Source: a virus
DNA length: 20,717 nucleotides
Virus genome (UHGV): UHGV-1961940
Direction: 5' to 3' (one strand)
This document shows, one piece after another, positions 1,255 through 20,717 of this stretch (position 1 is the stretch's first letter; every line of letters starts with the position of its first letter). The translations under genes and the position numbers were made by a program. Under the pieces are notes generated by a model. The model searched no databases and was not told the DNA's origin. It worked only from the letters and a program-made list of their open reading frames with translations.

Positions 1255-3333
1255 TTAAAAAGGCGTTTCATCATCCTCAAAACCAGGGACCGGGTCAGAG
1301 GATGGATCATCGTACTGGAGGTCTTCCTGCGTGTCAACAGGCTTAACAGTAGGAGTTACAACCTTATCAGCCACAACCTTGCCCATAGGTGTTTCTACAA
1401 CTGCATGCTCCTGATCCTCAAACATAGCCTGAGGTCTCCAAACAACCTCCCCACCTTCTCCGTCTGTAAACATTTGCATTTCTTTGTCCCAGTACCAATT
1501 ACTGGCATCATGGAACTTACCTGTGTGCGGGTCCATAACCAAAGTGTCAGCAATACCTAGAGTTTTTGCTGGACGGTTTTTAAGACCTACCAGACGGACA
1601 CGTCCACGAGAACGATCCACCATTTCTTCGGCCTCGACACCTATGACTACCCAACTCAACTGTTCAAGCCCAGCCGATCCTCGCAAATTCTCTTTTCGCA
1701 CAGGATACCAGAAAGGTAATGGGTTACCATCCTTGTCCTTAGGGGGCACAATCTCTGTACGTTTGAGGTGAGCGATCACCAAGATAAACACGTTAAACTG
1801 CTTACAAAACGCAGCCAGTTGGGTCATAGCCATGTCCAGTTCTTTTCGCTCATCCTTAACATTAAGCCCTGAAATTACCATGGACAGGTGATCCAGCACA
1901 ATATAACGACAATGGTACAGGCAAACCATTTGCTTAAGCTTGGTAATCAACTCGTCCACTGGAATAGACCCGAAATGTTTGAACACTTTGATTTTTCCAG
2001 CTTTTGCCCATGATTGGTGAATCTCTGCGTGTTCTTGATCAGTTAAAAACTGGCTAGGATCTTCAACAAACTCTTTAACATCAAACCCTAACTGGTTTGC
2101 ATACAAGGAGTTAATTGCTTCCTCTGGGTCCTCCTCAAGATGAATCATGCATAGACGATCATCCTCTTCGTAATCATCAGCCTTTGGACATGTCGGGTCC
2201 ATTAGGTATCTTGCAATACAGTGTTCCAGTTTTTTAGCTACAGTTGTTTTACCGCCTCCTGATGGACCTGTAAGCATTACGAGTGTCCCTTTGTGCAAGC
2301 CTTTTAGCATTTTTTGCAGTTTTGGGAACTCTGCGCTGATATCTACCCCGTTGGAAGTCTTTTTCCGCAAAGATTCGATAGAGAAGTCTTCTAAATCCGA
2401 TACAGCATCCGGTACATACTTAACAGGATGCCGGAACATGTTTACAATATCTTCCAGCTTTTTAGCCTTCAGCATGTCACGGATATCTTTTACACCGTCA
2501 GGATCGTTTACTTCACCAGGGTACTCTACGTGGTAAACGTTATCAGCCATCAAAAATGCTGCGATATTGTGCGTAGCCTCAACACCTTTAATGACGTGTT
2601 TTTGCTTCTCTACCTCGTTAGCTGCATCGTTATCCATTGCCAGCACAACTGTTCCATAGCTACGGATAAACTTCTCATTGTTTGCAAAAGTATCTACTGC
2701 GTTTGCACATCCGCAGTTAATTCCAACAAAAGGTAGGCAGGGTTTTCCTGCCAGATCACCACCGTTGATAACTGCATCGATCCCGTCCTGTACCTCTTTA
2801 GCCCACTGCTTCACCTTTGCCGGGGCTTTAGCGTTGGTGAGAATCCCTTTTACTTGTATCTGATATGCAGCCTGCCATGCTGCAATAACATCACCTTCTC
2901 CCTCGCAAACGTTAATCTGCTTACGGTTGTTGGAAGATGCACACAGCTTTTGACCAAACATCTGGGAGTTAGCCTTTACGATGCCAACAACGGAGAAATG
3001 GCCCCTTTGCTCTTTAGGAATCGTCCAGTCGCGCTTTTTGAAACCGGACAGATTTCCGTAGCGGTCGTAATATGGGAAATATGTTGCAGTGACTGTCACA
3101 CCGTCTTCTTGGGACAATGCTGATCGCACACCAAAATATTGTGCAGCCATCAGACCGATATTTTGTTGTGGGACAGGGACAATTTTAGTATTTTCTAAAA
3201 CAGTCTCTACAGTTTCAACTTCTTTTTCATCACGATAGTCTCGTTTCACACTTCCCCCACTTTTATACTTAGTTGCTTTCGGGTTTGGCTCACCGAAACG
3301 GTTGTATGCAGATGCCATAAATTTACTTCCCAT
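1255..3333 (-). CDS. Bifunctional DNA primase/helicase (T7 gp4-like): an N-terminal TOPRIM DnaG-type primase domain without a Cys4 zinc-binding domain, plus a C-terminal DnaB/RecA-fold hexameric helicase, ending in an acidic tail.
   Basis: TOPRIM motifs are CEGEGD and VVLAMDNDAAN. Walker A is TGPSGGGKTT and Walker B is YIVLDHL. The C-terminal tail is QYDDPSSDPVPGFEDDETPF. An AAGGAG SD lies upstream of the ATG at 3333. Confidence 0.9.
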   Translation of the reverse strand: MGSKFMASAYNRFGEPNPKATKYKSGGSVKRDYRDEKEVETVETVLENTKIVPVPQQNIGLMAAQYFGVRSALSQEDGVTVTATYFPYYDRYGNLSGFKKRDWTIPKEQRGHFSVVGIVKANSQMFGQKLCASSNNRKQINVCEGEGDVIAAWQAAYQIQVKGILTNAKAPAKVKQWAKEVQDGIDAVINGGDLAGKPCLPFVGINCGCANAVDTFANNEKFIRSYGTVVLAMDNDAANEVEKQKHVIKGVEATHNIAAFLMADNVYHVEYPGEVNDPDGVKDIRDMLKAKKLEDIVNMFRHPVKYVPDAVSDLEDFSIESLRKKTSNGVDISAEFPKLQKMLKGLHKGTLVMLTGPSGGGKTTVAKKLEHCIARYLMDPTCPKADDYEEDDRLCMIHLEEDPEEAINSLYANQLGFDVKEFVEDPSQFLTDQEHAEIHQSWAKAGKIKVFKHFGSIPVDELITKLKQMVCLYHCRYIVLDHLSMVISGLNVKDERKELDMAMTQLAAFCKQFNVFILVIAHLKRTEIVPPKDKDGNPLPFWYPVRKENLRGSAGLEQLSWVVIGVEAEEMVDRSRGRVRLVGLKNRPAKTLGIADTLVMDPHTGKFHDASNWYWDKEMQMFTDGEGGEVVWRPQAMFEDQEHAVVETPMGKVVADKVVTPTVKPVDTQEDLQYDDPSSDPVPGFEDDETPF

Positions 3334-3996: not shown

Positions 3997-4008
3997 ACCA
4001 CCTTCTCC

Positions 4009-4311
4009 TTATTCCTTAAAAGCTATGATATCATAGGAACTTGCAGATGATTCTGGTGAAGAATGACTCCAGTCCAGGTCATCAGAATAGTCAGCGTACT
4101 GTGCGCCACTACGCAGTTTGTATTTTACCCACTTACCTGGTGCAGGGTTTTCACCACCTTCCCATACTTCCCAGCCTTCTGGCAGGCCGTCCTGAGCGTA
4201 GTCATCCACCTCACTAATGATCTTAGGGTTTGGCACCAAGATCCCCGCAGGCTCTTCCTTCCGGATAAGTGTCCACACAGCGTATGTGTCTGAGCAGGCG
4301 CATGATAGCAA
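4009..4311 (-). CDS. Hypothetical protein, about 100 aa, with an apparent TTG start and no internal Met.
   Basis: The frame is open from 4311 to 4009 with no in-frame ATG. It contains an acidic Trp-rich motif EGWEVWEGGENPAPGKW. The start codon is uncertain. Confidence 0.45.
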   Translation of the reverse strand: MLSCACSDTYAVWTLIRKEEPAGILVPNPKIISEVDDYAQDGLPEGWEVWEGGENPAPGKWVKYKLRSGAQYADYSDDLDWSHSSPESSASSYDIIAFKE

Positions 4312-6450: not shown

Positions 6451-7816
6451 ACGTCCCCTCTTCGGCTCTGGTTTCAAAATCTTTCCTGACAATTTTGTCT
6501 AAGTCAGGGAATGTTGTATTGTAAAACTCTACGACTCGCGGGTCAACAATAATGTCAACTTCTCTTAGTGGACGCAACAAGTTTATTCCTTGTATTGTCT
6601 TAACCCGACTCAAAGCAACATACGTCATCCCAGGAGAGAAAGCTCCGTTCTTTCCAAGGTCCAGGTTGTAACAATCTAGCGTAAGTCCTTGACTTTTATG
6701 AGATGTTACGGCATACCCAGATTTCAGAGGAAGTTGCCTGTATGACCCAATCACTACCCTCTCTATAAACTTCTCCATCTTCCTTTCTGCAATGTTGTAT
6801 CTCTGAGATGGCTTATACTCGTTATTTTCCCACAACCTCTGCTCTATGTCAACCTGTGTTCCATCTTCAAGCTCTACCACCACCGCCTTGTTCTTAAATT
6901 TAACAATTGTGGCACGTGTTCCGTTAACATAATAAGGTACTTTGTGCGTCGGGTCAACATCGTTGGCGGTTATCATAACTTTCATGCCAATTTTCAACTT
7001 CATCTCCTGCTCAACTGGCAGGGTGGAGGGAAACTTACCCTTCATTTCACCAGTGTATACCTTCTCTGGGGCGTTGATGGCATCATAGAACCTTCTGTTC
7101 ACTTCCTCTGCTTGTTTGTTGGTGGCGCAAATTGTGAGAGCGTCTGTTGGTACACCGCCTTTGTAACAGCGAGCATTAAGTTCTGCTACAACCTCTTTTA
7201 TGCGACGACCCTCACGAACACAGTTGAGCATTGTGGCAAATCGAATAGACTCCTGTCGGAACTGGTCTATTAGGGCTATGTTGTGAAGGTCCAGCTCTTT
7301 CCAAGATTCGGTATAGCAACATAGGTCTGTGTGGTAGAAGTTGAAGTAGGCCTCCTTCTCCATAGAAGAGACAACAGGAGGTGCCTGGTAAAAATCGCCA
7401 AACAATATGACCTGTATGCCTCCGAAAGGTTTGTCATTTTTTCGAAGGAAGCGGAGTTTTCTATCCATCTCTATAAACTTATCAGCACGGATCATAGAGA
7501 TTTCATCGATAATTAGGATGGTAAATGCCTTGCTTTTCAAAGGCTTTGCTGTTTTTGCCCTTATTGCAGTCCAGTCAGACTCCATGCTCACACCTGCTGC
7601 AAGATCGAAGGTTCGGTGTGCTGTTGCTCCATTAACGTTTAAAGCGGCTACCCCTGTCGGGGCAACCGTTATGCAAGAGTCTCCATACATTGACTGGATC
7701 ATGTTGATGAGGTACGTCTTCCCACAACCTGCGGGTCCTGAAACGAAGACATTCTCCCCACTCATGATTGCAACAAGGGCAGCATCTGTGCCTACATCAT
7801 ACTGCCCTTTTTCCAT
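6425..7816 (-). CDS. SF1B DNA helicase, Dda/RecD/Pif1-like.
   Basis: Walker A is VSGPAGCGKTYL and Walker B is LIIDEISM. The C-terminal block is GYAVTSHKSQGLTLD. A GAGGAGG SD is present. The start overlaps the upstream gene's stop as TAATG. Confidence 0.85.
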   Translation of the reverse strand: MEKGQYDVGTDAALVAIMSGENVFVSGPAGCGKTYLINMIQSMYGDSCITVAPTGVAALNVNGATAHRTFDLAAGVSMESDWTAIRAKTAKPLKSKAFTILIIDEISMIRADKFIEMDRKLRFLRKNDKPFGGIQVILFGDFYQAPPVVSSMEKEAYFNFYHTDLCCYTESWKELDLHNIALIDQFRQESIRFATMLNCVREGRRIKEVVAELNARCYKGGVPTDALTICATNKQAEEVNRRFYDAINAPEKVYTGEMKGKFPSTLPVEQEMKLKIGMKVMITANDVDPTHKVPYYVNGTRATIVKFKNKAVVVELEDGTQVDIEQRLWENNEYKPSQRYNIAERKMEKFIERVVIGSYRQLPLKSGYAVTSHKSQGLTLDCYNLDLGKNGAFSPGMTYVALSRVKTIQGINLLRPLREVDIIVDPRVVEFYNTTFPDLDKIVRKDFETRAEEGTYEFVEKYS

Positions 7817-9021
7817 TACGCCTCCTCGTAGATAATGTCGATGATGTTACCATCACGGTCAACTACGTATTCAATCGGATCGCCATCTTTGCGTGATTCC
7901 GGTGCTGCTACGATTTCGTAGCGGCATGCACGGCACTTAGCACTGTTGTGTTGGTATGGCACACTAACCACATCCGCAGGGTCAACCATAACCATCATTA
8001 CAGTGCCATAGCCCGCTGCATACTCTTTGCTGGCGCAGTGCAGGCCATAAGAACACGCAGCTTCCGGATCATCTTCTACAAAGTTACGAGGCATGGACAC
8101 AAAAGCACCCTGGTATTGTGGAACTTTACCGCTGTGCCAATCCACCCACCTGCTCCCGTTAAACTGAACCCCCTTATAGCAAATGATTCGACCATCTTCT
8201 GCAACCTGGATGTCATTAGCCTGCATGAAATCGTAGAGCATGTTCACAGATTTTGCAGACGGGTTGCGTAGCAGACGGACAAGGAATTTAACATATCGGT
8301 CGTCCAGTGTTCCATCTACATAATCTTCCTCAATTTTCTTTGCAATGGTGGATCGCATCTCTACACCGTAGTAGTAGAGCTTACCATCTTTCATGATCAG
8401 GTTGTCTGCAAGTGTGGTGAACTCATTCTTGCGTTCCAGCCAGACAAGGATTTCACCAATTGCCTCATCATATTCCTGAACAGAAATATGGTCGAAGACT
8501 TTCTGGTAAACTTCCTCACTTTCGCTGCGGCGAATTTCAAAAATGCCTTCGTTGCAGGTGATCTGGAGGAGTTCCCCGCAAATAACTACCAAAGGCTCGA
8601 TGCTTCGAGACTGTTGCTGAGACACACTGCTCACTACTTCCAGCACCGGATCTTTGACTTCTACTAAAGGTTCTTCTGACTTGATTGCTACCCCAGTGAA
8701 CCCCACACCGTGAACAACACACAGTGGGTATACCACGCCCCAACGTTTAACGGAACCTTCACCTGAATCTAAGATCATGGCGTACTTACCGTTGTCTTCC
8801 AGTCCGTAGCGGAATAAACGGGCCTCTTCGCGGGTTTCAAAATCCTCACGGGTATAGCAGACACTGTCTCGGTCAGGATCAAACAGCTCTGGGGCACCTA
8901 CTGCCAGTGTCCATGTTGTAGTACCTTTCTCAATAGCACATGTGAAACCCTTCTTCTCAAGTTCTGCACGGCGGTCGCGTGCTTCTTTACGAGTTTTGAA
9001 ATGTTCGTAGATGAAAATCAT
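7816..9021 (-). CDS. Hypothetical protein, 401 aa. The conserved-looking C-terminal block is of unknown family.
   Basis: Long ORF with a TAAGGAGACAGC SD. The C-terminal region is ...GLHCASKEYAAGYGTVMMVMVDPADVVSVPYQHNSAKCRACRYE.... I could not assign a domain from sequence alone. Confidence 0.7.
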   Translation of the reverse strand: MIFIYEHFKTRKEARDRRAELEKKGFTCAIEKGTTTWTLAVGAPELFDPDRDSVCYTREDFETREEARLFRYGLEDNGKYAMILDSGEGSVKRWGVVYPLCVVHGVGFTGVAIKSEEPLVEVKDPVLEVVSSVSQQQSRSIEPLVVICGELLQITCNEGIFEIRRSESEEVYQKVFDHISVQEYDEAIGEILVWLERKNEFTTLADNLIMKDGKLYYYGVEMRSTIAKKIEEDYVDGTLDDRYVKFLVRLLRNPSAKSVNMLYDFMQANDIQVAEDGRIICYKGVQFNGSRWVDWHSGKVPQYQGAFVSMPRNFVEDDPEAACSYGLHCASKEYAAGYGTVMMVMVDPADVVSVPYQHNSAKCRACRYEIVAAPESRKDGDPIEYVVDRDGNIIDIIYEEA

Positions 9022-11951: not shown

Positions 11952-13136
11952 TTAAGCTTTAGCCAAAATGGCGCTAAACTCTTCACCAAACTCTTTTACA
12001 ATCTTCATCAGGTTTGGGTATGCTTTGATCAGCTGAGCAACAATCTTGTCACGCCCTTTACCGATAAGCAAGGCATTTCCTAAGGCATTAGGTTTCATCA
12101 TCGCCATAAAGACTGAGAATACAAAATCTCGGTTCTCGTCCTTGAAGTTTTCCCAAAGGAAATCGAGGAAGTTTGCCACGCAGCTGACAAGATCTTCGTC
12201 TGAGATACTTGCATTTTCCATCATATTGCGAATAGCGATACAACCTTCAGATCCAAGAATCCACAAAATGTCTGGCTGCTTAGGACCTACGTATTCTTTG
12301 CAGCCACCTGCCATAATCCGACCGATTTCCGGTAAATTACGTTTCTTGGTGTGGTAAGTCCAGATCTCTACCGCTGCAGTGTGACCAATAGCACCTTGTA
12401 GAAGAACACGGGCCATAGCGTCAGAAATAATACCGCTGTCAAAATCGTGCAAGATGTCAGATGCAGCAACCCAAGATCGTGGTGTGGCAAAAGATGGACA
12501 ATTAATCTCAGCCATAGCCTCATAATTATCAATAGCTGATGGAACTCTTTTCAGATACCCAATTACAGAGGAGTGAACCCCGTTGAGGAATGCGTAGTCC
12601 TCAATAAACACCTCTGCATTGCTTGTAACCTCTACAATGATAAAACGGTTAGCCAGAGGGGCTTCGAGCGCCGAAAGAACCGCACCATCTGTAGAACGGT
12701 TACCCGCAGCCACAAAAACAGAACCCTTAGGGAATGCATAGGTGCCGCACTTGTGGTCAAGCATAATTTGCATTGCAACCTTTTGCAGGTAGTTATCTGC
12801 ATGAGTGAGCTCATCCAGAAAGATAATTCCGCTCCAGTCAGGATCCGCAGGCCAAAATTCTGGAATTGCAAACACTGTACGTGTAGTTCCATCCGCTTCT
12901 ACAGGGATAGGTAGCCCAGATAAGTCGGCAGGATCTTTATCTGACAGTCGCACGTCAACAAGGTTGTCATCTCGCTCACCGAACATATTATCAGCGATCT
13001 GCTTCATCACCTGGCTTTTACCCACACCCATTGGTCCCAAAATTAGGACAGATCGGCTATGACGTTGGGCAAACTGAATAATAGCTGGCAACTCACGGAC
13101 AGTGATTTGACCACTTTCGAATACGTTTCTTGACAT
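11952..13136 (-). CDS. MoxR/CbbQ/NorQ/CobS-like AAA+ ATPase (AAA_5 type).
   Basis: Walker A is LGPMGVGKSQ and Walker B is IIFLDELTHAD. The sensor/arginine-finger region is VFVAAGNRS...APLANRF. The start overlaps the upstream stop as TAATG. Confidence 0.85.
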   Translation of the reverse strand: MSRNVFESGQITVRELPAIIQFAQRHSRSVLILGPMGVGKSQVMKQIADNMFGERDDNLVDVRLSDKDPADLSGLPIPVEADGTTRTVFAIPEFWPADPDWSGIIFLDELTHADNYLQKVAMQIMLDHKCGTYAFPKGSVFVAAGNRSTDGAVLSALEAPLANRFIIVEVTSNAEVFIEDYAFLNGVHSSVIGYLKRVPSAIDNYEAMAEINCPSFATPRSWVAASDILHDFDSGIISDAMARVLLQGAIGHTAAVEIWTYHTKKRNLPEIGRIMAGGCKEYVGPKQPDILWILGSEGCIAIRNMMENASISDEDLVSCVANFLDFLWENFKDENRDFVFSVFMAMMKPNALGNALLIGKGRDKIVAQLIKAYPNLMKIVKEFGEEFSAILAKA

Positions 13137-15703: not shown

Positions 15704-15721
15704 CACGTTTTTGATGTTGAC
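15699..15721. promoter_or_regulatory. Candidate operator: perfect inverted repeat GTCAACA-N9-TGTTGAC. Each arm contains a -35 hexamer of one of the two divergent promoters.
   Basis: GTCAACA is at 15699-15705 and TGTTGAC at 15715-15721. The left arm overlaps the minus-strand TTGACT. The right arm overlaps the plus-strand TTGACA at 15717-15722. Confidence 0.4.
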
Positions 15722-16754
15722 ATCTGTTGAGACAATTGATACGATTTCTTCACTTACAGAGCACGAGAGACGACTCATGAATCTTGAAAAATATTATACA
15801 CCAGAAGAGTTAGAGCGCTTGCTCAAAAAATATAGACGCAAACAGAATAACGCACGGAAACGAGATATAGAGTTCGACCTGTCATGGGAAGAATACCTCC
15901 TATTTGGTAAAAAACTTTTAGGAGATGGAGTATGCGACTATACCCTTATACCTTTTGACATGCACACAGATGAAAACGGGCTGGGGAATCCTTTCTACCC
16001 ATCCCTGGAGCGGATAGATGATGAAGGTCCTTATGCGGTTGATAACTGTTGTGTGGTGGGATTGAGATGCAACTCTCTAAAGGACTGTCTGGTAGATAAA
16101 AAGACTGCAGTCTTGATTAAAGACGAAACTGATCGAAAAATTGTCCAGCAGATGATGCTCCACCTGAGCGAAGAGCGTATGGAGAAATTGAAAGGTGATT
16201 ATACTTTTGAAGATTTCATCTTGCAATATGGAACGGAAGAGGATAAACTAGCACTCTTTGACGAAGAAGAGGAGGAAGATATGCTACCGATGTCTAAAGT
16301 TACTTATCGTGCACCCAAGAAGCACATTTCCGACATTGTAAACGAGCCTATCACAGAAGAGATTGAAGAAATGACGCAACAGGTGCATGAAGAGGAAAAA
16401 GAGACTCAGGAGGTCGAAGAGGAGCTTACAGAAGAGGTTCCTGCACTACCTGATGATGTTGAGATTGCCAAAGCTTACACTTTCTATTGTCAAACGTTCT
16501 ACGATGTAGGTATGAAAGTTGATCTGTCGTTCAGCCAATTTAAGAGTTCGTATATTCGCAAATGCTGTGCTTTAACTGGTGAACGTCTTGGAGCTGGACT
16601 TAAACCCCTGTTGGTGACCGACTGGAATAAAGGTTTCACTAAAGGAAACTTTATGGTAGTATCTCCAATTATGAAGAAAGCTATGACAGATCTTATGAAG
16701 ACCACCCGCATGACAATGACCGAGTTGGCAGGTATTTTCAAACACGTTAAATAA
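15711..16754 (+). CDS. Protein with two tandem, degenerate Endo VII-like (HNH-fold, recombination endonuclease VII family) modules. The start is uncertain: TTG 15711 or ATG 15714 have no SD; the ATG at 15777 has a weak GAGAGA SD. An internal in-frame start at 16281/16291 with a GAGGAGG SD could give a nested C-terminal isoform.
   Basis: Module 1 is ARKRDIEFDLSWEEYLLFGKKLLGDGVCDYTLIPFDMHTDENG...LRCNSL. This resembles Endo VII family RKxYGIxxEEYxxLxxxQGGxCAICG...VDHDHxTG...LLCxxCN. Module 2 is IRKCCALTGERLGAGLKPLLVTDWNKGFTKGNFMVVSP, with DWNK in place of DHDH. The assignment is by remembered motif pattern, not by search. Confidence 0.5.
   Translation: MMLTSVETIDTISSLTEHERRLMNLEKYYTPEELERLLKKYRRKQNNARKRDIEFDLSWEEYLLFGKKLLGDGVCDYTLIPFDMHTDENGLGNPFYPSLERIDDEGPYAVDNCCVVGLRCNSLKDCLVDKKTAVLIKDETDRKIVQQMMLHLSEERMEKLKGDYTFEDFILQYGTEEDKLALFDEEEEEDMLPMSKVTYRAPKKHISDIVNEPITEEIEEMTQQVHEEEKETQEVEEELTEEVPALPDDVEIAKAYTFYCQTFYDVGMKVDLSFSQFKSSYIRKCCALTGERLGAGLKPLLVTDWNKGFTKGNFMVVSPIMKKAMTDLMKTTRMTMTELAGIFKHVK
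15717..15745 (+). promoter_or_regulatory. Candidate rightward promoter: TTGACA, 17 nt, TACGAT.
   Basis: The -35 is a perfect TTGACA at 15717-15722. The -10-like TACGAT at 15740-15745 has the TAnnnT pattern. If this promoter is used, the rightward gene more likely starts at the ATG at 15777. Confidence 0.3.
16285..16313 (+). repeat. Copy 2 of the perfect 29-nt start-codon repeat (MSKVTYRA), inside the Endo VII-like ORF directly after a GAGGAGG motif.
   Basis: Identical to the revcomp of 14423-14451. Confidence 0.85.
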
Positions 16755-16758
16755 TGAC

Positions 16759-16775
16759 AGGGGCCAATGGCCCCT
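16759..16775 (+). promoter_or_regulatory. GC-rich hairpin AGGGGCC-AAT-GGCCCCT just after the Endo VII-like gene stop. It sequesters the ATG at 16767.
   Basis: 7-bp stem with a 3-nt loop, followed by TCTGGAGTTTTAATG. It may act as an attenuator or terminator and argues for the downstream start at 16788. Confidence 0.3.
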
Positions 16776-18248
16776 TCTGGAGTTTTAATGGATAGCAGAA
16801 GTTCAGAAATCATTGCCTCGCAGAAAGATGATGCCCTGAGAATGTTGCAGGCTGCACGTATGTATCTCCTTGAAAAGCTGCCGTTTTATGGCACACTACT
16901 GTCAGGGTTGCAGTTCGTAGAAAACCACACATGGTGCTCCACCATGGCAACCGACCATAAACGCATCTATTACAGTCCTGAGTTCATTATGGGATTGGCT
17001 GATGAACGCAAGGCTATTCTTAAGGCTTCTCTAACTGACGAGCAGTTTGAGATGGCTGAAGTTTTCTATTCTCCAAAATCTGTGAAAGAGGTGGCCTTCC
17101 TTCTGTCACATGAGGTGGGGCATATTATCTGTGATCACCTAGTCCGTGGTAAAAGCTTTGAGCCGGAACTGTTCAATATTGCTTGTGATCACGTTATCAA
17201 CACAGGCCTTGTGGTTGACTTTAGCAAACCTCCTTGTGTTTTCTTCCCGAAGGGGAAAAGCACTACGTTCATGAAAGGTAAGCCTTTTGGCTTCTTAGCC
17301 AGCTGCTACTGCGACATGAAGTTTCATGGATGGATTGCTGAGAACGTTTATGCAGTTCTTGATAAGCAAAGAGATCAGAATAACGGTAAAAGTAAGAACG
17401 GTAAAGGTGAGAACTCTCAAAGTGATAAGCGACAAACCGATGATCACATGAGTGGGAACGGTGGCACCAGTGATAATCTTGGAAAGGCTATGGGGTATGA
17501 TCAGCCACAACCTGTAATCAGCCAATCTGATAAAGATCAGGCCATGCAGGACTCTGGTGATATGCTGGAGGCAGCAATGCAAGCGTCCGGAGGCCGTTGC
17601 CCTGAGGCGGTGCGTGAGTTTGTCAAGAACAGAGGTAAGCCTGTAATCAACTATATAGACATCATTAAGCAACGTATGTTGTCTAAAAGAAAGGCCGAAC
17701 TGACCTACAGAAAACCTGGTCGCCGATCTGGGTCTTTGACCAGCACAATGCGAAAAGTTGGGGCTATAAACAAGAACCAGCACGTTATTGTTCCTGGTCG
17801 TAATCCGGAAAACACTATAGATATTGTGGTGGCTTTAGACGTTTCTGGCTCGATCTCTCAAAGAACTTTAAAGAAAATGTTCAATGAAATCACCGGATTG
17901 TGCAATCTGTATAAAGAGTTTAAGGTTACAATGTTCTGTTGGTCAACTGAGGTTGGAGAGGTTAAAGTATACACTCGCGGCAACATAGACGAGATGGTCA
18001 ACTATGAGGTCCACTCAACATGGGGCACAACAGCTGCTTGCGTGTTCGAGTATCTGGATGCCAACATACCTAATGCAAAAGATGTCATCGTCCTGACCGA
18101 CCTATACTTTGAGCATAACTTTGAACAAAAGGTTGTTGACAACAAGTGGAAAAAGTACGATACTCTATGGGTCCTCACTGAGGGGTATAATAAAAATTAT
18201 ATCCCGAGCTTTGGGAAAACTGTGGAATTAATCGAGTACGCTAAGTAA
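16767..18248 (+). CDS. Zincin-like putative metallopeptidase domain (HExxH) fused to a von Willebrand factor A (VWA) domain. Probable partner of the MoxR-like ATPase. The ATG at 16788 (MDSRSSEI, GGAG SD) is an alternative start.
   Basis: The N-terminal domain contains HEVGHIICDH. The MIDAS motif is IVVALDVSGSIS (DxSGS). This matches DUF2201_N plus VWA (CoxE/NorD/CobT-like) architecture. Confidence 0.8.
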   Translation: MAPSGVLMDSRSSEIIASQKDDALRMLQAARMYLLEKLPFYGTLLSGLQFVENHTWCSTMATDHKRIYYSPEFIMGLADERKAILKASLTDEQFEMAEVFYSPKSVKEVAFLLSHEVGHIICDHLVRGKSFEPELFNIACDHVINTGLVVDFSKPPCVFFPKGKSTTFMKGKPFGFLASCYCDMKFHGWIAENVYAVLDKQRDQNNGKSKNGKGENSQSDKRQTDDHMSGNGGTSDNLGKAMGYDQPQPVISQSDKDQAMQDSGDMLEAAMQASGGRCPEAVREFVKNRGKPVINYIDIIKQRMLSKRKAELTYRKPGRRSGSLTSTMRKVGAINKNQHVIVPGRNPENTIDIVVALDVSGSISQRTLKKMFNEITGLCNLYKEFKVTMFCWSTEVGEVKVYTRGNIDEMVNYEVHSTWGTTAACVFEYLDANIPNAKDVIVLTDLYFEHNFEQKVVDNKWKKYDTLWVLTEGYNKNYIPSFGKTVELIEYAK

Positions 18249-18263
18249 GAGAGGAGGTTATTT

Positions 18264-18527
18264 ATGGCAACAGAGTTAAAATTTGCATCAAACCGTAAAA
18301 CTAAGAAGTATCTGTCCTCAGTAGCTCCAGGCACTGTGGTGATGTTTGTTGATGAACTTGGGGATGTGAATACAGCACTTGTTGTAAAATCACATCCTGC
18401 AAACATATATGTTGGGGTATTTGACCTGTTCAGAAAGGTGTTTGTAGAACTGCCTCACAGTTTGGTTGTTACAGAAATGGATGCCTGCATAGAAATTCTT
18501 GGCGAAGTTATGGTGGAGGAACAATAA
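18264..18527 (+). CDS. Small protein, 87 aa. Paralog 1 of a four-member tandem family.
   Basis: MATELKFASNRKTKKYLSSVAPGTVV...VTEMDACIEILGE. A GAGGAGG SD is present. It aligns clearly with paralog 2. Confidence 0.65.
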   Translation: MATELKFASNRKTKKYLSSVAPGTVVMFVDELGDVNTALVVKSHPANIYVGVFDLFRKVFVELPHSLVVTEMDACIEILGEVMVEEQ

Positions 18528-18790
18528 TGGCTACCAGCATTGTATTCAATTCTAAGGTGAAGAACAAAAAGCGTGCAGACAGTTTTCCGTGTGGGACCGT
18601 GGTAAGTTGCGACGGAGACGGCATTCAAAACATAGTTATGATTGTCAAAACAGGAGAACATTGTGTGTGGGGGTTCGATTTAGAAAATAATGAGTTGTAC
18701 GATCTGCCGCCAAACATGAAAGTTACAGAGCTTGACACCAAAATTACCATCCTTGGAGAGACAAGCTATTCAAAAGAAGGAGGAGAATAA
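18527..18790 (+). CDS. Small protein, 87 aa. Paralog 2.
   Basis: MATSIVFNSKVKNKKRADSFPCGTVV...VTELDTKITILGE. The start is TAATG-coupled to paralog 1. Confidence 0.65.
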   Translation: MATSIVFNSKVKNKKRADSFPCGTVVSCDGDGIQNIVMIVKTGEHCVWGFDLENNELYDLPPNMKVTELDTKITILGETSYSKEGGE

Positions 18791-19053
18791 TGACCACAAA
18801 AATCACTATCGCAGAACCGAAAGCTAACACTCAGCCTATCGAAAAGTTTAAGTACGGTGAGGTGGTAACATTCACACCAGATAATGAAGATGCTAAGATT
18901 TTCGCAATGGTCACAGCTGAGTGGATGTGTGACAACACCACACAGGTTCTGCGTTTTGACACCTATCTTACCGATGAAATCAGGAACGACAAGATTGTGA
19001 CTGGTGTGGATACTGAGATTGTTTTCTACAAGAGCTTTTTAGAGGGTTTCTGA
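18790..19053 (+). CDS. Small protein, 87 aa. Paralog 3 (more diverged).
   Basis: MTTKITIAEPKANTQPIEKFKYGEVVTF...KIFAMVTAE. TAATG-coupled. GAAGGAGGAG upstream. Confidence 0.6.
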   Translation: MTTKITIAEPKANTQPIEKFKYGEVVTFTPDNEDAKIFAMVTAEWMCDNTTQVLRFDTYLTDEIRNDKIVTGVDTEIVFYKSFLEGF

Positions 19054-19054
19054 T

Positions 19055-19288
19055 ATGGCAAAAATTAGAAAATTATCTAGCAATCAGGTTGTGAAAGACT
19101 TCGAATCTGGAGAGATTCTTTATGTTCGTGATGCAGATGACGAAGGTGAAGATCTCGTTATGTTGGTGGGGCACGCTGAGGACGGATGCATCCAAGCTGT
19201 TTTTCTTGAAACAGCTATGGTGCACTGGATAGAGCTGGACCTGAAAGCACGAAAACCTAAAGCAGAAATCCTGATTTACGAAGATTAA
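19055..19288 (+). CDS. Small protein, 77 aa. Paralog 4 (most diverged).
   Basis: MAKIRKLSSNQVVKDFESGEILYVRDADDEGEDLVMLVGHAE. The start lies 1 nt after the stop of paralog 3. Confidence 0.55.
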   Translation: MAKIRKLSSNQVVKDFESGEILYVRDADDEGEDLVMLVGHAEDGCIQAVFLETAMVHWIELDLKARKPKAEILIYED

Positions 19289-19304
19289 CAAAAAGGAGAT
19301 AGCC

Positions 19305-19754
19305 GTGTTGAGCAAACGTGAATGCGACAGCATTAGCCTGAATTCTTATAAGAAACAATGGTTTGGGGTGGAAGTTTGCCGACTGCGGCTAGGCTCCTAC
19401 CTGAACTTCGTTTATTATGAGAGTGACAGTCGTATCGTTTCTTATGAAGTGTTCTACACTAAGAACACATTCGAACTGCGCCGTAAAGTAGATGGCGGGA
19501 GAACTACCACCCAGAATAATTGGGAAACTATTCTGCCTCCAGATGTTATAGGAAGTCCCCTGAATGTATCTGAAGATGAAAATCTTATGGTTCATGCTAT
19601 GATGGGACTTGACAGCTTAGAGCTGGCAATCTATGATATGTCCATCGAAGCAGTTAAGCTGGACTACATCGAAAACACTTTAGAGGAAGGTATCAAGAAG
19701 TTTCTCAGTGAGAAATTAAAAGACCACTTTCATAAGGAGCTATATCTGTTATGA
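19305..19754 (+). CDS. Hypothetical protein, 149 aa, with a GTG start.
   Basis: An AAAGGAG SD lies 6 nt before the GTG at 19305. Coding-like ORF. Confidence 0.6.
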   Translation: MLSKRECDSISLNSYKKQWFGVEVCRLRLGSYLNFVYYESDSRIVSYEVFYTKNTFELRRKVDGGRTTTQNNWETILPPDVIGSPLNVSEDENLMVHAMMGLDSLELAIYDMSIEAVKLDYIENTLEEGIKKFLSEKLKDHFHKELYLL

Positions 19755-19996
19755 AGACCCGTAAAGAACGTAACAAAATTTTACCTGGAGCTCTCGAACA
19801 CCTGATGAAGTGCAGATCTATTTGGCACTCTGCCAAGGAAGGGCAGAAGGTGGTTGTGGTTAGTGACAATACCAACCCGTTTGGAGATTATACCACCATG
19901 ATGGCCCCATATGTCCGTGATGGCGTTGTAGAAGTGGTCCCTTACAACGGTTTGCATGAACGGCACTTTGAAAGCACTTTGCTAGTGGAGCTATAG
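19751..19996 (+). CDS. Hypothetical protein, 81 aa.
   Basis: ATGA-coupled to the upstream gene. Confidence 0.55.
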   Translation: MKTRKERNKILPGALEHLMKCRSIWHSAKEGQKVVVVSDNTNPFGDYTTMMAPYVRDGVVEVVPYNGLHERHFESTLLVEL

Positions 19997-19998
19997 TC

Positions 19999-20565
19999 AT
20001 GGCGGTCAATGTGGCTTACAACACAGGAAAGCTTGACAGAGACATTGGGTGTCTTGTCCTTTCAGATACAGAAGAGTATTGGGGTTATGGGTTGCTGTCA
20101 GACCCACACCCGAGCAACCTTGTATCAACAGTGCTATACCGCTACGACCCTGTGCCAACGGTACACGACAAAGACATTCACGACCTTCGGATCAAGTGTC
20201 TGGAAGATCTGCTGAACAATGGTTGCAACGATCTGCGGGTAGCCAAGGAGAAGCTTACAAACATTCACAAAGAGGAAGTGATGAGTACCCTCAGTAAAAG
20301 ATCAGTGCACAAAAAGATGATGCTGAACTTTGCAATGGGTATCTACATGGATGGGTATAAGGGAGGGGATCCGATCCTCAAGCTTCGCTGCCCGACACTG
20401 TGGGAAAGAGTGGTTGACAGTAAGGACGGTACTGCCCTGCTCGAACTCCACACTGCAGGTTGGATTTGGCGGTATGTAGACGGATACCCTCTGTGGGCAT
20501 GTGGACCTGGGGAATTTGTTGACAGACCTAGCGCGGTGGTGGACTTACTATTGCAGTTTGAATAA
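19999..20565 (+). CDS. Hypothetical protein, 188 aa.
   Basis: The ORF begins 2 nt after the upstream stop. Confidence 0.6.
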   Translation: MAVNVAYNTGKLDRDIGCLVLSDTEEYWGYGLLSDPHPSNLVSTVLYRYDPVPTVHDKDIHDLRIKCLEDLLNNGCNDLRVAKEKLTNIHKEEVMSTLSKRSVHKKMMLNFAMGIYMDGYKGGDPILKLRCPTLWERVVDSKDGTALLELHTAGWIWRYVDGYPLWACGPGEFVDRPSAVVDLLLQFE

Positions 20566-20622
20566 AAAGGTGAGTTATAAGGTATTCATACACCTACCAA
20601 CAATACAACAGGAGAGACTAAG

Positions 20623-20717
20623 ATGACGAAAGAAGAGGCCGACGTATTAGATTTTGCACTAGAGGCTACGCAGGAGGCTTTGGTGTTAGCTTGGAAAATG
20701 AACCAGCGTGCAGTGTG
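20623..20717 (+). CDS. Hypothetical protein, partial (5' end only; continues beyond the window).
   Basis: CAGGAGAGA SD, then ATG at 20623 (MTKEEADVLDFALEATQEALVLAWKMNQRAV...). The frame is open to the window end. Confidence 0.4.
   Translation, partial: MTKEEADVLDFALEATQEALVLAWKMNQRAV

Follow-up and report, generated by a model that had tools for sequence, protein, structure and literature searches.

Results

The gene array and its operon

We describe here an array of four small genes in a viral DNA stretch of 20,717 nucleotides (nt), UHGV virus genome UHGV-1961940, which is called the window throughout and whose first letter is position 1. The window belongs to a Vequintavirus, that is, an rV5-like Escherichia coli myovirus, and the 3.2 kb around the array are 99.9% identical to phage Murica. 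The four genes, termed p1 to p4, follow one another on the + strand: p1 (18264..18527, 87 amino acids [aa]), p2 (18527..18790, 87 aa), p3 (18790..19053, 87 aa) and p4 (19055..19288, 77 aa). All four products are acidic, with a pI of 4.5-5.0 and a net charge of -4 to -8, the lowest value being that of p4. The same open reading frames are annotated as four consecutive hypothetical-protein coding sequences in Murica, JLBYU08 and HeinrichReichert (Bas58, where they are bas58_0051-0054), and since they are under codon-level purifying selection in the + frame, we regard them as real genes.

The junctions p1/p2, p2/p3 and p3/p4 read GGAGGAACAATAATG, AGGAGGAGAATAATG and GAGGGTTTCTGATATG, respectively. 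At p1/p2 (18523..18531) the stop codon TAA overlaps the next ATG in TAATG, with GGAGGA just upstream; p2/p3 (18786-18794) has the same TAATG design, and p3/p4 (19051-19057) reads TGAtATG after GAGGG. The GGAGG-like Shine-Dalgarno sequences of p2, p3 and p4 are each encoded in the C-terminal codons of the gene before. This geometry is typical of translational coupling and suggests that p1-p4 are coupled; similar overlaps are present elsewhere in these operons. A preliminary description of the locus, made from the sequence alone, had reported four adjacent reading frames of 77-87 aa with TAATG or 1-nt junctions, and its coordinates, sizes and junctions hold, as do the motifs that it quoted for p1 and p2, which are present in both proteins. 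The G(E/T)VV core that it extended to the third and fourth proteins stands for p3 only, because p4 has GEIL at this place.

On the + strand the order of genes is Srd-like, VWA/metallopeptidase, p1-p4 and then homologs of rV5 gp017, gp018 and gp019. The Srd-like "anti-sigma" gene (15777-16754) comes first and lies behind a sigma-70-like, TG-extended promoter (TTGACA-17-TACGAT, 15717..15745, + strand) situated in a divergent intergenic region that forms a bidirectional promoter. The gene directly upstream of the array (16788..18248, +) encodes DUF2201_N metallopeptidase and DUF2201 VWA domains (Pfam E=4e-28 and 3e-11, respectively), and the first array start lies 16 nt past its stop codon, within the same operon. 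The gp017 homolog (19305..19754, +; phrog_6790) follows directly downstream. A terminator scan found no + strand terminator-like site between the 15717-15745 promoter and the window end. In the rV5 paper, genes 11-26 were proposed to form one transcription unit and the structural genes include 27-66; the array thus occupies the gene 11-26 unit behind the sigma-70-like promoter, apart from the structural genes.

Relationship of the four proteins

Judged from their sequences, p1 and p2 are unambiguous paralogs (37% identity): their Smith-Waterman alignment gives z=20 with 0 of 500 shuffles reaching it, and both match phrog_10698 over its full length (1-87 of 87 profile positions; E=7.6e-43 and 4.8e-41, respectively). 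Full-length matches to family hidden Markov models (HMMs) were also obtained for p3 (phrog_12861, E=3.3e-60) and p4 (phrog_12046, E=5.1e-55), so that PHROGs places p1/p2, p3 and p4 in three separate families of unknown function, which are not linked to one another there. In pairwise Smith-Waterman comparisons with the other array proteins, p3 and p4 scored weakly (z 1.2-3.6).

Profile-profile comparison joins the three families. A first profile (A1), representing p1, p2 and their rV5 relative gp014, gave P=1.4e-4 for p3 and P=0.02 for p4, and 6 of 400 shuffles reached the score of p4. The profile was widened (A9) with two divergent metagenomic members, P0025 and P0027, which came from an exhaustive HMM search of 1.84 billion representative proteins. 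With A9, hhalign returned p3 at a probability of 90% (P=1.6e-6, 75 collinear columns) and p4 at 51% (P=1.5e-4, 67 collinear columns), both alignments running end to end. None of 380 column-shuffled alignments of either protein reached the real score (z=13.3 for p3 and 7.8 for p4), and the highest score among 37 other small phage proteins was 14.7, that of p3 being 36.6 and that of p4 26.3. These controls were drawn from this and related phages and included gp018, gp21 of phage N4 and the 85-87 aa genes adjacent to the VWA gene in sister genera. Because the signal is specific and rises as the profile is diversified, it points to true remote homology, which on these alignments is near-certain for p3 and highly probable for p4. 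The proposal that p1-p4 form one duplicated family is thereby borne out, p1 and p2 as clear paralogs and p3 and p4 as remote ones.

Several neighbouring or similar genes were considered as further members and rejected: the 85-87 aa genes preceding the VWA gene in PVP-SE1, Av-05 and KB57, as well as gp018 and N4 gp21, all gave hhalign P>=0.05.

The four proteins are 17-37% identical to one another and no DNA-level repeat is left within the array, so the duplications must be old. The spread from near-identical to highly diverged copies, which had been taken as a sign of rapid evolution, reflects this age. A recent duplication or a foreign origin of the array was considered and rejected, as the array shows neither a DNA repeat nor a GC anomaly.

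Predicted fold

The AlphaFold2 model of p2 is a confident all-beta structure (pLDDT 82) that matches SH3-like barrels of the Tudor, KOW and uL2 kinds: five antiparallel strands form a strongly bent barrel, which can be laid over solved structures of Tudor, KOW or SH3 domains and has additional N- and C-terminal strands. The suggestion of an SH3-like or similar small beta-barrel thus agrees with the fold predicted for p2. Its structural neighbours include the KOW domains of Spt5 and the RNA-polymerase-binding C-terminal Tudor domains of UvrD/PcrA. When searched against BFVD, the top matches of the p2 model were a p1-type protein (TM 0.85) and a gp014-type protein, followed by many uncharacterised small phage proteins and by the p4 ortholog of phage naam (E=0.018, TM 0.50-0.55). 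p4 was modelled from p3/p4 sequences only, which kept the model independent of the p1/p2 family; it reached a pLDDT of 58 with the same order of core strands, and its BFVD search returned a p1-type model weakly. Taken together, the models describe a family of small (77-88 aa), acidic proteins with a predicted all-beta, SH3-like barrel.

No known family could be assigned to any of the four paralogs, as had been stated before: Pfam, PADLOC (which covers defence proteins only) and PDB sequence searches gave nothing significant, and the Pfam KOW (PF00467) and Tudor families did not match the array proteins at E<=1. The best PDB sequence match, a non-significant one, was to an Spt5 KOW domain (E=0.12), which merely agrees with the fold. 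The SH3-like domains of known families likewise lack a significant sequence match to the array proteins, and the additional terminal strands set p2 apart from them; moreover, the Tudor, KOW, PWWP, uL2 C-terminal and UvrD/PcrA C-terminal Tudor modules are domains, whereas the array proteins are free-standing. Similar in design are N4 gp21, an 87-aa protein of vB_EcoP_SU7 and others in BFVD, which have a similar size and a predicted barrel (Foldseek E 1e-3 to 1e-2, TM 0.5-0.65), and in N4, too, genes for a MoxR-like ATPase and a DUF2201 VWA protein lie close by as a pair. By sequence, however, N4 gp21 is unrelated to the family (hhalign P=0.11), and by these model comparisons the likeness to it and to similar proteins is at the level expected for any small barrel.

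The place of p4 in the family deserves separate consideration, as it could be that only p1, p2 and p3 are homologous and that p4 resembles them through its beta-rich composition and size. Such a view could draw on the weak score of p4 with the narrow profile, where the reversed sequence scored almost as high, on a p3-p4 profile comparison of P=0.02-0.03 and on the low confidence of the p4 model. We consider it improbable, since the wider profile extends over 67 collinear columns at a score that neither shuffled alignments nor the small-protein controls reach, the strands of p4 are predicted in the same order, the weak fold matches run in both directions, and p4 lies adjacent to the others on the same strand with a similar length.

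Distribution and copy number

The region 17500-20717 of the window is matched by 118 phage records, all Vequintavirus, and tblastn found each array gene in these records only. In a collection of 5.8 billion proteins, the p1/p2/gp014 family formed 24 clusters and p3 and p4 together 20, all from Vequintavirus-like contigs. True matches among the 1.84e9 representative proteins numbered four, and IMG/VR contained four loci of the family.

Copy number follows lineage. In the sister-genus phages PVP-SE1 (Seunavirus), Av-05 (Avunavirus) and KB57 (Mydovirus) the VWA gene is directly followed by the gp017 homolog, with no copy at the locus. A 124-kb metagenomic relative (L015), whose VWA protein is 61% identical, has a single 83-aa member between the VWA and gp017 genes and neither p3 nor p4. 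Two IMG/VR contigs of 139-141 kb (L024 and L025) also have one copy, an 83-aa, P0025-type member at 4001-4252 that is followed directly by a gp023 homolog; the 8 kb fetched contained no VWA match. Three copies (gp014-type, p3 and p4) occur in rV5, FV3 and 72 other records, and four (p1-type, p2-type, p3 and p4) in the 44 records of Murica-type phages and in a divergent E. coli-associated contig, L014. These lineage copy numbers, namely none in sister genera, one in distant relatives and three or four in Vequintavirus, suggest that the array was inserted between the VWA and gp017 genes and then expanded within Vequintavirus, and agree with the local, lineage-specific expansion proposed earlier. 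The position of the single copy in L024 and L025, beside a gp023 homolog and with no VWA match in 8 kb, suggests that the family has also moved between positions.

A variable first slot

Variation in the makeup of the array among the Vequintavirus records is confined, as far as their sequences indicate, to the first slot, which behaves as a cassette swapped by recombination: it holds p1+p2 in 44 of the 118 records and one gp014-type gene in the remaining 74. Compared with rV5, the window is near-identical through the fourth codon of the first small gene, and near-identity resumes at the p3 start codon; between these breakpoints p1+p2 are replaced by the single gp014 gene, and the breaks are sharp at the open reading frame boundaries. 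The cassette does not follow species assignment, Pr121LW being classified as Vequintavirus murica yet carrying the gp014-type gene, which argues for recombinational exchange.

The p1-type, p2-type and gp014-type proteins form three clades that are 35-41% identical to each other, and by sequence the gp014 type is a third lineage, about 40% identical to both p1 and p2. An origin of rV5 gp014 as an unequal-crossover chimera with a p1-like N-half and a p2-like C-half was examined and rejected, as p1-like and p2-like informative sites are intermingled along the gene (Mann-Whitney p=0.77; best breakpoint p=0.2).

Selection on the array genes

Between the window and the divergent contig L014, protein identity is 57% for p1 and 62% for p2, and it reaches 96.6% for p3 and 94.8% for p4; the neighbours stand at 51% (Srd-like), 81% (VWA), 60% (gp017) and 54.5% (gp019). 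In the same comparison, Nei-Gojobori estimates of the ratio of nonsynonymous to synonymous divergence (dN/dS) were 0.03 for p3 and 0.04 for p4 at a dS of about 0.65, and p1 and p2 had a dN of about 0.3, as for the neighbours, with dS saturated. Within the genus, dN/dS was 0.02-0.03 for p3, 0.03-0.13 for p4 (the value of 0.13 deriving from three differences) and 0.02-0.24 for p1/p2. Accordingly, few proteins of the region are as constrained as p3 and p4, which are fixed in the genus and subject to very strong purifying selection, and neither the L014 nor the within-genus dN/dS comparisons gave a sign of positive or rapid evolution of p1-p4. The label "rapidly evolving" in the preliminary description is therefore wrong for p3 and p4 and unsupported for p1 and p2, which diverge about as fast as their neighbours.

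The synonymous divergence of p3 is unusually deep in comparisons with L006, L007, L009 and L010, with a dS of 0.35 against FV3, 0.51 against rV5, 1.4 against phita32 and saturation against Aya. In several of these comparisons the dS of p1 or gp018 is about 0.09-0.14, so that p3 is much deeper. This pattern, seen in the alignments, suggests that p3 exists as allelic lineages of old age, which recombination has shuffled while the protein was very strongly constrained.

Transposon and virion data

A HIDEN-SEQ preprint presents a transposon-sequencing essentiality map of Bas54, a Vequintavirus with the three-gene arrangement (bioRxiv 10.1101/2025.11.20.689424). Its gene table lists, in order, bas54_0055 (metallopeptidase, 1461 nt), bas54_0054 (267 nt), bas54_0053 (264 nt), bas54_0052 (234 nt) and bas54_0051 (450 nt) (10.1101/2025.11.20.689424). 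From this order and these lengths, bas54_0054, bas54_0053, bas54_0052 and bas54_0051 would correspond to the gp014-type gene, p3, p4 and gp017, respectively, and the VWA/metallopeptidase gene of the window (16788-18248) appears to be the ortholog of bas54_0055. The three small genes were non-essential in E. coli K-12, with 17/17, 13/15 and 12/12 TA sites hit in bas54_0054, bas54_0053 and bas54_0052, respectively (10.1101/2025.11.20.689424), so that the gp014-type, p3 and p4 genes are dispensable in this host. In the rV5 paper, gp14-16 are not among the virion proteins named, and its gene table gives them neither a homolog nor a function. Both results speak against a conserved structural component, the outcome against which the preliminary description had set its own reading.

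Around these genes the preprint's resampling, which contrasts K-12 with clinical isolate CFE303 or CFE311 and whose values are not attributable to one of the two isolates, gives a log2 fold change (log2FC) of -2.20 (q=0.009) for bas54_0055, -2.28 (p=0.028, q=0.195) for bas54_0051 and -7.23 (q=0) for bas54_0063, a MoxR ATPase (10.1101/2025.11.20.689424). The preprint reports that the MoxR gene is needed to overcome the DS-28 defence system, to which its knockout becomes sensitive (10.1101/2025.11.20.689424). In Extended Data Table 8, sheets S6 (K-12 vs CFE303) and S7 (K-12 vs CFE311) hold the same values for bas54_0060-0067 and both headers give 27 significant genes; one sheet may be a duplicate.

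The window encodes a 394-aa ATPase on the - strand (11952-13136), whose Bas58 counterpart, bas58_0063, is annotated as a MoxR ATPase; as bas58_0063 shares position and number with bas54_0063, the window gene is probably the ortholog of the latter. The ATPase and VWA/metallopeptidase genes lie on opposite strands, about 3.6 kb apart.

Neighbouring genes

A few observations concern the surroundings of the array. A GC-rich hairpin, AGGGGCC-AAT-GGCCCCT (16759-16775), lies between the Srd-like and VWA genes; it is a terminator in the Murica annotation and may serve as an intra-operon attenuator. The VWA start proposed by the ORF finder (ATG 16767) falls within this hairpin, and the annotated start, ATG 16788, is preceded by GGAG. 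In the rV5 reference (L006, 767-2228) two overlapping genes, gp012 of 441 aa and gp013 of 81 aa, stand in place of the VWA/metallopeptidase gene; it is a single 486-aa gene in the window and other genomes, and the split is probably a frameshift or sequencing error.

Labels of the gp017 homolog vary by record between "tail protein" (phrog_6790, RefSeq) and "putative holin". The gene lies in the gene 11-26 operon, directly follows the VWA gene in sister genera and is non-essential in K-12, and in the clinical-isolate resampling its depletion (log2FC -2.28, q=0.195) equals that of the VWA gene. A functional link with MoxR/VWA is possible, and the structural label seems to have no basis. The metagenomic relative L015 carries two tandem gp019 paralogs (6938-7531 and 7577-8128) and a TnpB-like gene (2119-3258; OrfB_IS605 and Cas12f1-like_TNB domains), the latter in the bidirectional promoter region between fucosyltransferase-like and Srd-like genes. 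Finally, 16 "Campylobacter phage" records are among the Vequintavirus matches, 15 of them giving C. jejuni as the host, and one, C12, is 98.5% identical to the window; the host label of these records looks doubtful.

Discussion

The observations above are best accommodated if the array is a set of dispensable host-interaction binding modules that arose by lineage-specific tandem expansion of one small-barrel family, a reading to which we would assign a probability of roughly 0.6. The sigma-70-like promoter at 15717-15745, the lack of a terminator-like site behind it and the position in the gene 11-26 unit suggest early transcription by the host RNA polymerase, and p1-p4 would then be translated as a coupled chain. 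Each barrel would act as a stand-alone module that binds a host macromolecule, and the modules may tune host takeover or counteract functions of the host that come into play only in natural hosts or conditions. The targets of p3 and p4 would be conserved, those of the first-slot proteins more variable. That p3 and p4 are conserved to an extreme degree and yet dispensable in K-12 suggests that their function is of consequence only in natural hosts.

Several points weigh against this reading. Small phage proteins very often have an SH3-like fold, from which little can be learned about function, and the p4 model is of low confidence. The assignment of the Bas54 genes rests on gene order, lengths and flanking annotation, and the transposon data cover the gp014-type, p3 and p4 genes of the three-gene arrangement. 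In the two-isolate resampling, bas54_0054 (gp014-type; log2FC +0.46, q=1) and bas54_0053 (p3; +0.33, q=1) are neutral and bas54_0052 (p4; -1.32, q=0.68) shows a weak, non-significant depletion (10.1101/2025.11.20.689424); given the absence of a significant depletion, which the MoxR and VWA genes do show, the tables of the preprint point to no host-specific role for the array genes and speak weakly against the anti-defence or host-takeover role suggested in the preliminary description. Lastly, the strong conservation of p3 and p4 contrasts with their laboratory dispensability.

The genomic neighbourhood raises the alternative that the paralogs serve the MoxR ATPase and VWA-metallopeptidase pair as accessory subunits or substrate adaptors in countering DS-28, each barrel recruiting a different target. 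The array starts 16 nt past the VWA stop codon in the same operon, the single member of L015 likewise comes directly after the VWA gene, the MoxR knockout is reported to be DS-28-sensitive, and insertions in the VWA gene are depleted (log2FC -2.2, q=0.009). However, in the same preprint tables insertions in the gp014-type gene and p3 are not depleted and those in p4 not significantly, so that none is co-depleted with MoxR or VWA; PVP-SE1, Av-05 and KB57 have the VWA gene with no family member at the locus, and the copy in L024 and L025 has a gp023 homolog as its neighbour, the 8 kb fetched showing no VWA match. The consistent co-occurrence and shared conditional phenotype expected of an obligate partner were thus not found in the genomes compared or in the preprint's tables, and we regard this alternative as unlikely. 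A broader and slightly less likely variant would make the barrels interchangeable specificity adaptors for a MoxR-VWA/metallopeptidase anti-defence machine, or a panel of decoys, each for a different host immune or takeover target; a swap of the first slot would then re-target the phage to the defences of other E. coli lineages, and the near-invariant p3 and p4 would serve conserved host proteins.

About as doubtful as the adaptor role is that the proteins bind the host transcription machinery in the manner of KOW or Tudor domains and, together with the Srd-like anti-sigma protein encoded upstream, take part in early host takeover. The Spt5 KOW and RNA-polymerase-binding UvrD/PcrA Tudor domains among the structural neighbours, the non-significant Spt5 KOW match in the PDB (E=0.12) and the operon shared with the Srd-like gene would fit such a role. 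Yet the fold matches are of low Z and of a sort that small barrels give in general, Pfam KOW and Tudor do not match, and the genes are non-essential in K-12. A role in the virion or its morphogenesis, for instance as decoration proteins or a tail chaperone, for which only the "tail protein" label of the adjacent gp017 family in RefSeq and PHROGs could be adduced, is very unlikely, given that the array lies apart from the structural genes, that the rV5 proteomics text does not list its products with the virion proteins it names, that nearly all TA sites were hit in non-essential genes according to the Bas54 tables, and that the family is absent from sister genera with similar virions.

The array is of a kind that is already known, namely a group of small accessory genes that has expanded in a large lytic phage and can be dispensed with. 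Comparable variable slots for accessory genes in such phages are the hyperplastic regions of the T4-like group and the anti-defence or moron cassettes. Like such slots, the array consists of small, laboratory-dispensable reading frames of unknown function between conserved genes, with cassettes exchanged by recombination at conserved flanks; unlike them, it varies in its first slot only, p3 and p4 being fixed throughout the genus and highly conserved. What is new is the grouping of three already annotated orphan PHROG families, phrog_10698, phrog_12861 and phrog_12046, into one SH3-like family.

In summary, the outcome is a tidy improvement of annotation rather than a surprise: a family that grew from one copy to four, with one swappable slot and two near-invariant members. 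Vequintavirus phages are common candidates for therapy and biocontrol, and most of their early genes are without an assigned function. The array offers a compact, testable candidate set for host-interaction factors in these phages, beside a MoxR/VWA pair that has been implicated in defence evasion.

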